Source: Opitutia bacterium
GTDB lineage: Bacteria; Verrucomicrobiota; Verrucomicrobiia; Opitutales; Opitutaceae
Direction of reading: 5' to 3'
Length of the DNA stretch: 64,000 nt
NCBI GenBank assembly: GCA_947478395.1
Contig: CANJVR010000002.1
Location: forward strand, 544,001-608,000
A program made the position numbers. This document shows, in pieces, positions 33,001-36,000 of this stretch (positions are counted from its first letter, which is position 1; each line of letters starts with the position of its first letter).

Positions 33001-36000
33001 AGCGAGCGAAGGCGGAACGTAGAGTTTGATCTTACCACCCTTGCTGATCTTTTGCAGACCCTCGGTCCAGCCGGGGATCACGCCGTCGAGCGGGAATTCC
33101 GCGGGCTCATTGCGCTGCACGGAGCTATCGAACACGGAGCCGTCGATCAACGTACCGGTGTAGTGCACCTTCACGGTCTCGGTCGGCTTCGGCGCCGGGC
33201 CATCGCCCGCTTTGACGATTTCGTAGCGCAGGCCGCTCGGCAGCTCGACGACGTTCTTGTTTTCCTTGAGCTTGGTGAAGAACGCCACGTTCTGCGCCTG
33301 GCTCTCCGCTTTCAATTTGGCGAGATAGGTGTCCTGCTTTTTCTTCATGAAATCGTCCATGGCCGGACCGATTTTGGGCAGATCGAAAGGCGAATCTTTA
33401 CCAGCGACGGCGGTTCCCATTCCCTTCAACAGGGACTCGATCTCCGCGGCGCTGAAGTTCAGCTCGGAGAGGCCAATGCGCTTACCCATGAACCAGCCGA
33501 ATTCCTCGAGCAGTTGGGCGTCGGTGAACGTCACGGCAGCGGCGGCCGGGGCGGCAGCTGGGGCGGCGGCCGCAGGGGCGCCGGGAATGTTCAGTTTAAC
33601 CTCCTGGGCTTGAGTCGCGGCGGTCGTGCCGAGCGCGAGCAGGGAAAGCGTAAGGGCTGATTTCAGTTTCATGCGTGGTTGTTGATGGAGACGTGAATGG
33701 AAACGGCGGAGGCTGAATTGTGCCGTAAAACTTTTGGATGTGCCCTTGCCGTGCCGGGAATGCAATCCCTATTAGGCGGGCGATCTGCCACGCGCTCGGT
33801 CGGCCGCCCCGACGGACTACATCGGCCTCGTCGGCTTCGCGCGCGAGATCGAGGCACCTTTTCCTGTCCCCGCGCGCTTGTGTTGGCGAGCGGCGCCCTT
33901 CAATGCTTCCCGTCCTCACCATGAGCCCCGATCAATTTTGGACCAGCCAGGACGGACAGATTCTGACTGTTAAGAACAAGGACGAGCGTTGCGTCACGTT
34001 GACCCTGGCGTTCTGGCCGCGCAATCCGCTCGAGTTCGATTTCATCAAAGCCCAGATCGCAGGCCTCAAGTTTACCGAACGCAGCTCGCTCGCCCGTATC
34101 GGCATCGAGATGATCCTCCAAGGTCCACCCGCACTAGAAAATAACCGTGTCGTGCTCGTCGCCGAGGCCTTCATCTACGACCAGAGTTTTCCCAACGCCC
34201 CGTTCTGGAAAAAACTTCTGCGGCCCGGCGTCCCCGTCGGCCGGCTTTTCCTCGCGCCCACCGCCGCGAAACTTTCCACCGGAGAAATCTGGGATGCCAT
34301 CAAGGGCAACGAAATCAAGCTGCCCAACACGATCTCGATCGACTCGCGCGGGCGCGTTTTTCTTACCCCGCACCAGGTCAGTTATACGCTCTCGAACAAA
34401 CTTTCGCGGATCAATTTCGAGCACATCGTCAGCGGCAACGCCGGCCGCGCCTTCATCGACAAGATTCAGGTGCGCCGCGACGCCTCGCCCCTCACGATCT
34501 CGCCGCACTCCGGCATCCTCACGAGCTGCTCGATGTTCCTGAAGGAGCACTTCGTCGTCCTCAATCAAGGCGAGGGCAACTTCGGGCTGCACACCAGCGC
34601 CATCCTCCTCGATCCAATCAAGACTTTCGGCACGAACATCATGCTGGAAATCTACAACACCGGCGACCAGCCCGTGGTGAATCCGATGGTGTCGGTCGAT
34701 ATTTTCCGCGCGCCACCGTTCACCGACCCCGAGTTCAAAACGCTCGCGAAAAAGCGCCAGCGCCTCCTCGGCACCGCGTCCGGAATTTTCAAGTGCCTCG
34801 ACGACAACCCGCCACGCGAAACCGCCGAAGCCCATCCGAAAACCAAGATCACCGTCCGCGGCCAGAGCGGCTCGATGGAAAACCGCAGCCTGATCGTCCG
34901 CGCCAACGAGGACCTCAGGAAATTCCTCGAAGGCGAAGCGTGCCCAATCGGCAGCCGCACCATGATCCAGGCGCTCGACGCGGCCCCGGCCGACGCCGAC
35001 ACGCTCATCGTCGACTATTTCCCTGATCTGCTCGAGCACATCGAACTGCTTACGCGCATCGGCGACGTGAAGCTGAAGCGGATCATTTTCCGCAAGGCCT
35101 CGCGCACCCATGGTTATTTTCTTTCCAGCAATGCCCACGCGCGTCTCGACACCTTCGACGCCATCGGCGTGCAGGTTTACTGGTACGACGAGACCACCAA
35201 GGAACTCTACGCCCACGTCTATAAGAAGGACCATGGCTTCTTCGTGCGCGAGGAGCTCGCGCGAAAATTCCAGGAGACCACCATCGTCGCATTTTACGGC
35301 TCGGCCATCGGCCTCGAAAAAGCCGACACCGATCGCATCACCGGCCTGGTCGAGCAGCTGCACGGCTTCATCGGCTCAAACATCGGCGTGCTCACGGGCG
35401 GCGGCGGCGGCGTCATGCGGCTCGCCACCGACCTCGCCCGCACGAAAGGGGCCCTCACAGGGGCGTGCTTCCTCGAACTCGAGGCGCAACCTCCGGAGCT
35501 CGGCGTGGATTTTTTCAACACGTTCCAGGAAGCGTCGCGGCACTTTCGCCAAAAATGGTTTGAGGCGGCGGATTTCTGCATCTTCAACGTCGGTGGCGTC
35601 GGCACACTCGAGGAAATCGGCATCGAGATGTGCAACCTGAAGCTCGGCATCCGTCCGCGCACGCCCTACGTATTTTTCAACGCGCGCTTCTGGGGCGACC
35701 TGCGGAAGCAAATCAAAGAAATGATCCGCACCAAACGCGCGCCCGCGTGGATCGCCGACTACATCTTGTTCACCGACGACCCCGCCGAAGTCATCGCATT
35801 CTACCGGAAAAAATTACAGGTGCTGTAGGAGCCGTTCCCAATTACCCTCCGCCCGAAGATCAGCGCACGGACCGACACGGATGCGCTCCTCAGAAAATAG
35901 GTGACAGGACTAGTCCTTGCTTCTTGAGCCTACGTCTGAATTTTTTCGGAGCGTGAGAGAACCACTACCTGCCTCCATCCTCGTCGTCGGCGCGGGCGGA

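Follow-up and report, generated by a model that had tools for sequence, protein, structure and literature searches.

A LOG-family protein of Opitutaceae with a predicted composite Dcd-like site and a zinc-less deaminase-like fold

The gene and its predicted modules

Within the 64,000-nt window analysed (contig CANJVR010000002.1 of an Opitutia bacterium), an open reading frame of 641 amino acids was confirmed at 33903–35828 on the forward strand. It lies between a divergent gene for an FKBP-type isomerase and the open reading frame of purD (GAR synthetase), in which the true start probably comes later (Table 1). Sequence comparison makes Met7 (33921) the most likely start, giving 635 aa, because homologues are mostly 634–637 aa long, none of 75 related loci has an ATG 18 nt further upstream, and a −35-like CTTG is found 39–49 nt ahead of Met7 in 71 of these 75. 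The ATG at 33903 is accordingly rejected as a probably wrong start. Residues are numbered here from Met7; the numbers of the first-pass annotation are higher by 6. An Rfam search across 32000–41000 returned one tRNA and no riboswitch.

Table 1. Features of the locus (window coordinates; residues counted from Met7)
Feature	Position	Strand	Basis or remark
FKBP-type isomerase gene	32884..33672	-	Divergent; synteny control
Conserved CTTG(TGT), putative −35 element	33877..33883	+	44 nt before Met7
Whole gene, 635 aa from Met7	33921..35828	+	Homologue lengths, upstream comparison of related loci
Dcd/dUTPase-like barrel 1 (1–115)	33921..34265	+	AF2 model, VIA, E. coli Dcd alignment, profile
Motif I, D11			Barrel 1
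Motif II, R54-S55..R59-G61	34080-34103	+	Barrel 1
Motif IV, G103..G107-R108-L109	34227-34247	+	Barrel 1
Dcd-like barrel 2 (116–266)	34266..34718	+	VIA, E. coli Dcd alignment, 2r9q comparison
Motif III, H224..A227..D231-P232..E243..N246	34590-34658	+	Barrel 2
Long helix and zinc-less deaminase-like fold (267–452)	34719..35276	+	VIA, Foldseek, conservation
F367-P368-[DN]-x-x-E372-H373	35022-35039 (P368-H373)	+	At the PCxxC position, aligned by eye
LOG domain, type-II-like (453–635)	35277..35825	+	PF03641, VIA, profile, residue conservation
VGGVGTLEE	35589-35615	+	V557 in place of the motif Pro
purD open reading frame (GAR synthetase)	35917..37260	+	Downstream neighbour

Pfam recognised only PF03641 in the whole protein (residues 550–631; 34.3 bits against a cut-off of 27). 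The first-pass annotation had proposed several modules, and these were found again in our own AF2 model (132 sequences; pLDDT 91.1, pTM 0.87) and in VIA fold matches. As modelled, the architecture is real: two Dcd-like barrels are followed by a deaminase-like fold without zinc ligands and, last, by a LOG domain.

Residues 2–267 were matched by VIA to the Agrobacterium tandem dCTP deaminase 2r9q (Z 14.4, rmsd 4.0, 236 aligned) and at Z 11.9 to M. tuberculosis Dcd:dUTPase. Barrel 1 scored 38.0 against a profile of 19 Dcd sequences (probability 83.8), where 25 column shuffles reached no more than 15.8. Barrel 2 scored 21.5 versus 21.2 in shuffles and its assignment therefore rests on structure and motif. 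An hhalign comparison of barrel 1 with barrel 2 was not significant, nor was hhalign to two tandem DCD_N/DCD_C members, and PF06559 and PF22569 gave no match to the protein at E up to 1. The scores of a three-copy complex prediction for residues 1–266 (0.00, 0.55 and 0.00) say nothing on oligomerisation.

For the middle domain, human dCMP deaminase was matched with the whole model at Z 7.6 (rmsd 6.2, 117 aligned), and the best Foldseek hit was 2w4l (E 6e-4). The earlier description as a zinc-less, dCMP-deaminase-like domain holds for topology and for the missing zinc cysteines but is too specific, as dCMP deaminase, FdhD, RibD and PurH (AICAR transformylase) tie as nearest superfamily (Z 6.1–6.6, rmsd 2.7–6.6, 101–117 aligned) and, with their relatives, occupy roughly 30 of the top 32 VIA rows. 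These proteins share the topology, whereas the domain here lacks CxxC and reaches a Z of at most 6.6. Comparison by hhalign with the dCMP deaminase of the same genome was not significant.

The LOG domain superimposes on type-II LOGs (CgLOGII 5wq3, S. coelicolor 5zi9, T. thermophilus 1wek and Neisseria YgdH 9us2; Z 16.2–16.4, with Z 16.4, rmsd 4.2 and 201 aligned for 5wq3), with a profile match at E 1.9e-17. Sequence searches of the PDB with the protein returned LOGs only, and the SLOG sensor domains of ThsA and TRPM were also among the fold matches. In a LOG-domain tree built by a quick method, the family forms a separate clade (SH-aLRT 97).

Residue conservation across the modules

Conservation was followed in 122 Opitutaceae-type and 132 Planctomycete/Chromatiaceae-type sequences (254 non-chlamydial) and in 120 chlamydial sequences; these groups are top matches with their kin, not independent samples, and identity between them is about 26–37%. 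The chlamydial clade was compared through one full-length alignment with no shared rows, and three per-domain ones, which shared the query row, were discarded.

One composite site is supported, with motifs I, II and IV drawn from barrel 1 and motif III from barrel 2; motif III is degenerate in barrel 1 and motif II in barrel 2. The Dcd motifs, as assigned in the first-pass annotation, correspond to E. coli Dcd almost letter by letter (GRSSLARLG against ERSSLARIG in motif II; HVTAHRIDPGW..LEFYNSG against HTSAILLDPIK..LEIYNTG in motif III). The division of the site proposed there is likewise borne out, but it is not new because PDB 2r9q (Pfam DCD_N/DCD_C), with two barrels per chain, is split in the same way, carrying KSSTGR in the first barrel and HYAGFFDP..LE in the second. 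2r9q differs in standing alone, in its sequence (12% identity) and in keeping a YQxQG lid, a Phe after DPG and a Gln in motif IV; a literature search whose results were crowded with an unrelated term yielded no biochemical paper on it. Homotrimeric Dcd and Dcd:dUTPase (E. coli 1xs1, M. tuberculosis 2qxx) share the fold and residues S111, R115, H121, A124, D128 and E138. Each of their subunits carries all motifs and the trimer has three sites, whereas here the motifs are divided between two unequal barrels that form one site without a lid. The monomeric dUTPases of herpesviruses likewise duplicate the barrel and place a single site between their domains (PMC12524310; 2we1 and 8zwq are among the fold matches), but their motifs are of dUTPase type and motif III comes first, opposite to the order here, where motif V is absent and the motifs are of Dcd type.

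The equivalents of the six Dcd residues just named are present in all or nearly all of the 254 non-chlamydial sequences, and five of them (S55, R59, H224, D231 and E243) in 254/254. S111, R115 and E138 reportedly have catalytic roles in Dcd, and the PDB holds the Dcd mutants E138A, E138D and H121A. The full set of five occurs in 0/120 chlamydial sequences: the R115 equivalent is Gln in 120/120 and that of D128 is Gln in 96, Glu in 18 and Asp in 6, with S, H, P and E of the site retained. The LOG catalytic residues are nevertheless kept in this clade. The Q148 equivalent is Arg in 253/254 and Lys in 119/120 chlamydial sequences. A lid-like [KSN]YxxQ pattern was found in 0/254 and 1/120, respectively, a helix following barrel 2 instead; another element might substitute for the lid. 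In Dcd, the aromatic residue after DPG serves in sugar selection. Its dUTPase counterpart is described in PMC12524310. F236, two places off register, is found in 122/122 Opitutaceae-type sequences, and an aromatic after DPG in 1/132 Planctomycete/Chromatiaceae-type and 22/120 chlamydial ones.

In the middle domain, P368 (374/374), E372 (254/254) and an RxASxxHGxFLS loop are conserved. As to zinc ligands, CxxC occurs in 0/378 rows and an [HC]xE string in only 20/378. Zinc-less deaminase-fold domains retain a nucleotide pocket partly walled by the strand-3/helix-3 loop (PMC3239186), and P368 and E372 fall in this loop.

The LOG domain is the best-conserved part (50/183 positions at least 90% conserved in both non-chlamydial groups) and shares with type-II LOGs the catalytic Arg/Glu, GS, TGGGxGxM and GGxGTxxE. 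It differs in 450 extra N-terminal residues, in RQ for RK and in an Arg (R540) at the adenine-contacting Phe152 position. In E. coli PpnN (YgdH), M190, R241 and E264 have been shown to be essential and T261 and E263 partly so; with the numbering checked, M190, R241, T261 and E263/E264 correspond to M499, R543, T562 and E564/E565, all of which are kept. R543 and E565 are each present in 376/377 homologues, including all 120 chlamydial ones, and the M, R, T, E set is intact in 253/254 non-chlamydial and 112/120 chlamydial sequences. The intact LOG domain claimed earlier thus holds as far as the catalytic residues go, but base pocket and motif are altered: the usual Lys after the catalytic Arg is Q544 in 377/377, and the Pro of PGGxGTxxE is lost in most sequences. 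That Lys binds adenine in CgLOGII, its replacement in BpLOG (K121R) nearly abolishes activity, and PpnN has Leu at this position. In one homologue, P0131, Arg and Glu of the LOG site are gone while the Dcd residues are kept, and this, like Q544 in place of the adenine-binding Lys, counts against the reading favoured below.

Distribution and genome context

Among 8000 scored candidates, 1046 homologues were found. The first-pass annotation had noted the gene in 5/5 Opitutaceae and 0/56 other Verrucomicrobiota. This agrees with its single-copy presence in 26/26 genomes of the family and with 0/274 in a sample of other Verrucomicrobiota, but one carrier lies elsewhere in the order (among 5/81 carriers in an order-level sample), and members occur in Planctomycetota, Chromatiaceae (including the cultured Thiocapsa and Thermochromatium) and Chlamydiota. 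A metagenome scan with a generic LOG pattern gave three full-length members and one partial in 80 loci with little flank. Viral contigs and plasmids yielded LOG domains and no full-length copy. In the ESM Atlas, residues 1–270 gave no usable match and a chlamydial homologue matched LOG-labelled clusters only. A literature search found no paper on the three-module family. C. trachomatis CT387 may be a member. It has 691 aa, is conserved across Chlamydiales and finds its best outside match in a 263-aa protein (PMC1403754).

The position before purD, pointed out earlier, is uninformative. The unrelated fkbp neighbour is kept more often (73/80) than purD (68/80), and the only carrier from elsewhere in the order sits among different neighbours, which makes inherited gene order the probable reason for the purD link.

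The genome (98.83% complete) has no Pfam match to DCD (PF22769), as first noted, nor to trimeric dUTPase (PF00692), and either is found in only 4/26 family genomes. This absence lends no support to a role for the gene, because it is an order-wide trait that extends to non-carriers: in 36 genomes of non-carrier families Dcd was found in 1/36 and trimeric dUTPase in 2/36. Opitutales mostly use a dimeric dUTPase (75/81 genomes) and dCMP deaminase (66/81), with or without the three-module gene. The genome itself encodes both, the latter in its canonical zinc form, together with ThyX, hence a full dUMP route, and an ordinary type-I LOG.

Proposed function and alternatives

We favour, at a probability of about 0.5, a nucleotide monophosphate nucleosidase resembling PpnN and controlled through a pocket for pyrimidine triphosphates. 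With PpnN as the working model, it would be a housekeeping enzyme, encoded in single copy, that controls nucleotide pools. Judging from the kept catalytic residues, the LOG domain would convert ribonucleoside 5'-monophosphates to base and ribose 5-phosphate, and since its base pocket has been remodelled (R540, Q544), its base preference probably departs from the one seen in ordinary LOGs. Together the barrels would form one Dcd-type pocket that binds CTP/UTP or dCTP/dTTP without hydrolysis, the deaminase fold may bind a further small ligand or serve as a scaffold for coupling, and binding at these pockets would tune LOG activity, most likely to turn the breakdown of nucleotides on and off. PpnN sets a precedent for the fusion of allosteric domains to a LOG: it too joins a LOG core to other domains and lacks the Lys after the catalytic Arg, but its extra domains (DUF4478/DUF3412) bind (p)ppGpp, where Dcd-like and deaminase-like folds stand here. 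Dcd-family enzymes bind the regulator dTTP through the HVTA loop (PMC4827122), of which H and A are kept in the family. A family-wide role fits binding better than Dcd chemistry because the chlamydiae lose R115, mostly lose D128 and keep the others.

Conservation of five Dcd residues in 254/254 sequences at about 26–37% identity would fit catalysis just as well. The chain could thus hold two active enzymes, the composite site deaminating dCTP or ribo-CTP and the LOG domain degrading monophosphates; this is the main alternative, which we consider less likely. The near-complete retention of the six site residues, the same split in a protein deposited as dCTP deaminase (2r9q) and the division into motifs I/II/IV and III, a feature of trimeric dUTPases and of the monomeric ones of herpesviruses (PMC12524310), are consistent with it; R108 might block water as R126 does in monofunctional Dcd (PMC3360063), and P0131 retains the Dcd site beside a dead LOG. 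Against it stand the missing C-terminal lid, which 2r9q has, the absence of the aromatic sugar-stacking residue in 131/132 Planctomycete/Chromatiaceae-type sequences, the chlamydial R115 to Gln change and the dCMP deaminase that carriers already own. On this reading, which is compatible with regulation, the chlamydial clade would have lost the deaminase. Ribo-CTP as a substrate is conditional on an open sugar gate. A more speculative and doubtful extension is that the composite site deaminates ribo-CTP or senses the CTP/UTP ratio and, with a LOG of new base specificity and a metal-free pocket in the deaminase fold, becomes a controller that balances ribonucleotides within a single chain.

It is improbable that the LOG domain is an SLOG-like sensor that binds without cleaving and controls an N-terminal catalytic site. 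The invariant Lys to Gln change, the mostly lost motif Pro and the ThsA and TRPM matches point that way, but M, R, T and E are kept and the closest folds are catalytic type-II LOGs.

The first-pass prediction of a dNTP-sensing or channelled enzyme survives in its sensing part, as an inference. A channelled route from dCTP through dUTP to dUMP, in place of the missing Dcd and dUTPase, is very unlikely, even though PF22769 and PF00692 are scarce in the family, the counterparts of S102 and D119 are retained and Leu/Val replaces the R126 blocker. In PMC3360063, bifunctional Dcd:dUTPase is characterised by Ser102, Asp119, Gln148 and an aromatic at the R126 position, with Q148 required for dUTP hydrolysis; Arg/Lys at Q148 and Leu/Val at R126 depart from this set, and channelling would lack one step because that Gln is Arg. 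The order, non-carriers included, mostly has dimeric dUTPase and dCMP deaminase, and cleavage of dUMP would waste a thymidylate precursor. LOGs also bind the 2'- and 3'-hydroxyls of monophosphates, so deoxy-triphosphate products would be no LOG substrate.

Least likely of all is a conflict protein, either a nucleotide-depleting anti-phage defence or a secreted chlamydial effector: one paper names CT_387 a 'potential T3SS effector', with no data in the part consulted, but the gene is single-copy amid housekeeping genes in 26/26 family genomes, PADLOC matched 0/4 proteins, and viral contigs and plasmids held no full-length copy.

Two unannotated nucleotide-fold modules are present in hundreds to more than 1000 proteins that bear the labels 'LOG family', 'AMP nucleosidase' or 'hypothetical'. 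If the barrels are catalytic, they would form a lid-less single-chain deaminase, possibly for ribonucleotides. If the ribonucleotide-balance reading were true, the controller would be a core gene of Opitutaceae with a sensor-only form in chlamydiae, where a protein that has long been called hypothetical would gain a function. Cultured carriers and residue-level predictions make these ideas directly testable, and the full-length clade in Chlamydiota gives them relevance to nucleotide parasites. If, as we favour, the barrels are a sensor, a dUTPase-superfamily fold would have been put to new use as the allosteric part of a nucleosidase, a second way to regulate nucleotide breakdown beside the alarmone control of PpnN.

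The gene and its predicted fold

The open reading frame singled out in the first-pass annotation is present in the window, but its true start is most likely 33921 (Met7, from which residues are numbered here) and not the ATG at 33903 proposed before, because an ATG 18 nt above Met7 occurs in none of 75 related loci and CTTG precedes Met7 by 39–49 nt in 71. A direct repeat, TGTGCC-N14-TGTGCC, lies between fkbp and the gene, with a similar pair in 34/75 related loci; it is possibly a regulator site or part of the promoter of the divergent fkbp.

Only the C-terminal LOG domain is recognised by Pfam and NCBIfam, and members are labelled LOG family, AMP nucleosidase or hypothetical in databases. 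The 120 top-ranking of 1046 homologues show 80–100% identity and are mostly 634–637 aa long. VIA searches with an AF2 model of the whole protein (132 sequences; pLDDT 91.1, pTM 0.87) reproduced the structural matches annotated earlier, namely LOG 5wq3 (Z 16.4, rmsd 4.2, 201 aligned), the tandem Agrobacterium dCTP deaminase (Dcd) 2r9q (Z 14.4, rmsd 4.0, 236 aligned over residues 2–267) and human dCMP deaminase (Z 7.6, rmsd 6.2, 117 aligned). Trimeric Dcd enzymes matched over the second barrel (Z 11–12).

Positions of the gene under study and of nearby features in the window
Feature	Position	Strand	Remark
SNF2-like helicase ORF	28539-31487		by eye
SET-domain gene	31473-32090		adjoins tRNA gene
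tRNA gene	32263-32335		Rfam RF00005
TGTGCC direct repeat	33719-33744		
Gene ORF	33903-35828	+	
ORFs resembling pyrR, pyrB, pyrC	43954-47249	+	about 8 kb downstream; by eye

The split Dcd-type site and the middle domain

Comparison with the E. coli dcd sequence bore out the division of the Dcd motifs noted earlier, one part in each half. E. coli GRSSLARLG (R110, S111, R115) matches ERSSLARIG in barrel 1 (R54, S55, R59), and HVTAHRIDPGW..LEFYNSG (H121, A124, D128, E138) matches HTSAILLDPIK..LEIYNTG in barrel 2 (H224, A227, D231, E243). A motif I-like Asp (D11, placed by eye) and motif IV (G103..G107-R108-L109) are retained in barrel 1 as well, and each of the 13 barrel-1 positions conserved to at least 90% in both non-chlamydial groups belongs to motif I, II or IV or adjoins one of them. 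Against the Dcd profile, barrel 1 scored 38.0 (25 shuffles, at most 15.8) and barrel 2 scored 21.5 (shuffles, 21.2). In trimeric dUTPases one subunit supplies motifs I, II and IV and its neighbour supplies motif III (PMC12524310), so the motif pattern predicts exactly one composite site.

The split was rejected as a new feature. It is known from 2r9q, with NPKSSTGRLD in the first half and VHYAGFFDPGFG..VLEVR in the second, although the second half of 2r9q carries a YQAQG lid that is absent from the family under study (lid-like motif in 0/254 non-chlamydial and 1/120 chlamydial sequences). Herpesvirus dUTPases have a split site too, but in reverse motif order. The aromatic residue that follows DPG is out of register here: it is F236 in the 122 Opitutaceae-type sequences, and the other two groups have an aromatic in 1/132 and 22/120. 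Every module has a known counterpart; no description of the three-module combination was found in the openly searchable literature on CT387, on SLOG or LOG proteins with dUTPase, on LOG and Dcd motifs and on tandem Dcd. Two Dcd-like ORFs in other genomes (L210 in G237, 232 aa; L211 in G126, 270 aa) lack the catalytic motif residues and have C-terminal tails that are hydrophobic or coiled.

A separate model of the middle domain, built from 82 sequences of which one is not Opitutaceae-type, had a pLDDT of 88.5. Of its top 32 VIA rows about 30 were deaminase-fold chains with tied scores (Z 6.1–6.6), among them dCMP deaminase (rmsd 6.6), FdhD (rmsd 3.1), RibD (rmsd 3.5) and PurH AICAR transformylase (Z 6.3, rmsd 2.7); the best Foldseek match was 2w4l (E 6e-4). 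The individual Z scores all fall in the grey zone, yet the list is consistent. The earlier assignment thus holds for a deaminase-type fold without zinc cysteines, but dCMP deaminase is not singled out. CxxC occurs in 0/378 alignment rows, whereby a zinc deaminase was rejected, and its place is taken by FP[DN]LxEH (P368 in 374/374 rows; E372 in 254/254 non-chlamydial rows). Zinc-less members of this fold retain a nucleotide pocket walled by the corresponding loop (PMC3239186); such a pocket is plausible here.

The LOG domain, distribution and neighbourhood

The structures nearest to the LOG domain are type-II LOGs. Residues M190, R241, T261, E263 and E264 of PpnN, the E. coli LOG-type nucleosidase (bioRxiv 10.1101/2025.04.13.648610), correspond to M499, R543, T562, E564 and E565 (numbering checked), and M, R, T/S and E are kept together in 121/122, 132/132, 112/120 and 3/3 sequences by group. 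The domain, previously called intact, is so in these residues, but the equivalent of the adenine-binding Lys156 of CgLOGII (PMC5379747) is Gln in 377/377 family sequences, most of which have also lost the motif Pro; the Phe152 equivalent is Arg540 in 253/254 non-chlamydial sequences. BpLOG is crippled by K121R (PMC6864091), a position at which PpnN has Leu and this family Gln. Catalysis is likely, because M/R/T/E are kept and PpnN also does without the Lys. In a quick tree a well supported branch (SH-aLRT 97) separates the family LOG domains from 16 other LOGs, consistent with a single origin of the fusion.

The gene occurs in 26/26 genomes of its own family and 0/274 other Verrucomicrobiota; the family restriction noted earlier is breached by one of the 5 carriers among 81 genomes of an order-level sample. 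In this carrier the gene lies between ispG and a transglycosylase gene. Distant full-length members lead to Planctomycetota and Chromatiaceae (198 matches), and Atlas cluster taxa add Thermodesulfobacteriota. Four very divergent proteins (P0252, P0255, P0267, P0270; 21–25% identity, parts of the Dcd motifs kept) suggest further lineages. Chlamydial proteins about 700 aa long (437 matches) form a clade that aligns with the family over 599 columns (probability 99.9, no shared rows). It keeps S55, H224 and E243 in 119/120 sequences; R59 is Gln in 120/120, and D231 is Gln in 96, Glu in 18 and Asp in 6. Presumably C. trachomatis CT387 belongs to it. CT387 is a 691-aa Chlamydiales signature protein (PMC1403754), termed a potential effector in passages of PMC11070183 that give no data for this.

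Among 80 loci, short contigs included, purD follows in 68 (41 of them within 150 bp) and glyA is kept in 54. The position before purD is thus common, but the link is not singled out, fkbp being kept in 73. PADLOC gave no match.

Metabolic setting and probable role

The genome has a dimeric dUTPase, zinc dCMP deaminase, ThyX (its open frame, at 620 aa, is unusually long) and an ordinary LOG, with no PF22769, PF00692, PF06559 or ThyA match; there is no metabolic gap for the gene to fill. The absence of other DCD matches, remarked on before, is real but lends no support, since non-carrier families of the order mostly lack them too (DCD matches in 1/36 genomes, many such matches in the order survey being cross-matches to dUTPases; dUTPase matches in 2/36). 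Dimeric dUTPase, a short PF08761 protein and the usual type in Opitutales, was found in 75/81 genomes of the order sample and dCMP deaminase in 66/81 (loci listed for these and ThyX: L221, G000:C1 1381–1959; L083; L223). Trimeric dUTPase is also present in 4/26 carriers.

An active deaminase at the composite site is a serious, though less likely, rival. Two observations speak for it and against the reading favoured below: none of the five Dcd residues varies among the 254 non-chlamydial sequences, and one protein, P0131, the sole such case among them, has lost the LOG Arg, Glu and Met with its Dcd site intact. Channelling from dCTP, as first proposed, is very improbable: it conflicts with LOG use of the 2'-hydroxyl and lacks the dUTPase step, for which Dcd:dUTPase requires Ser102, Asp119 and Gln148 (PMC3360063), the last being equivalent to R108 by alignment register (Arg in 253/254 non-chlamydial, Lys in 119/120 chlamydial sequences).

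We favour, at a probability of about one half, a PpnN-like, regulated nucleosidase of nucleoside monophosphates, mainly because the LOG catalytic residues persist family-wide while the Dcd residues change. The LOG domain would cleave nucleoside monophosphates, and the Dcd-derived pocket would bind a pyrimidine triphosphate without hydrolysing it and so regulate the nucleosidase in the manner of PpnN.
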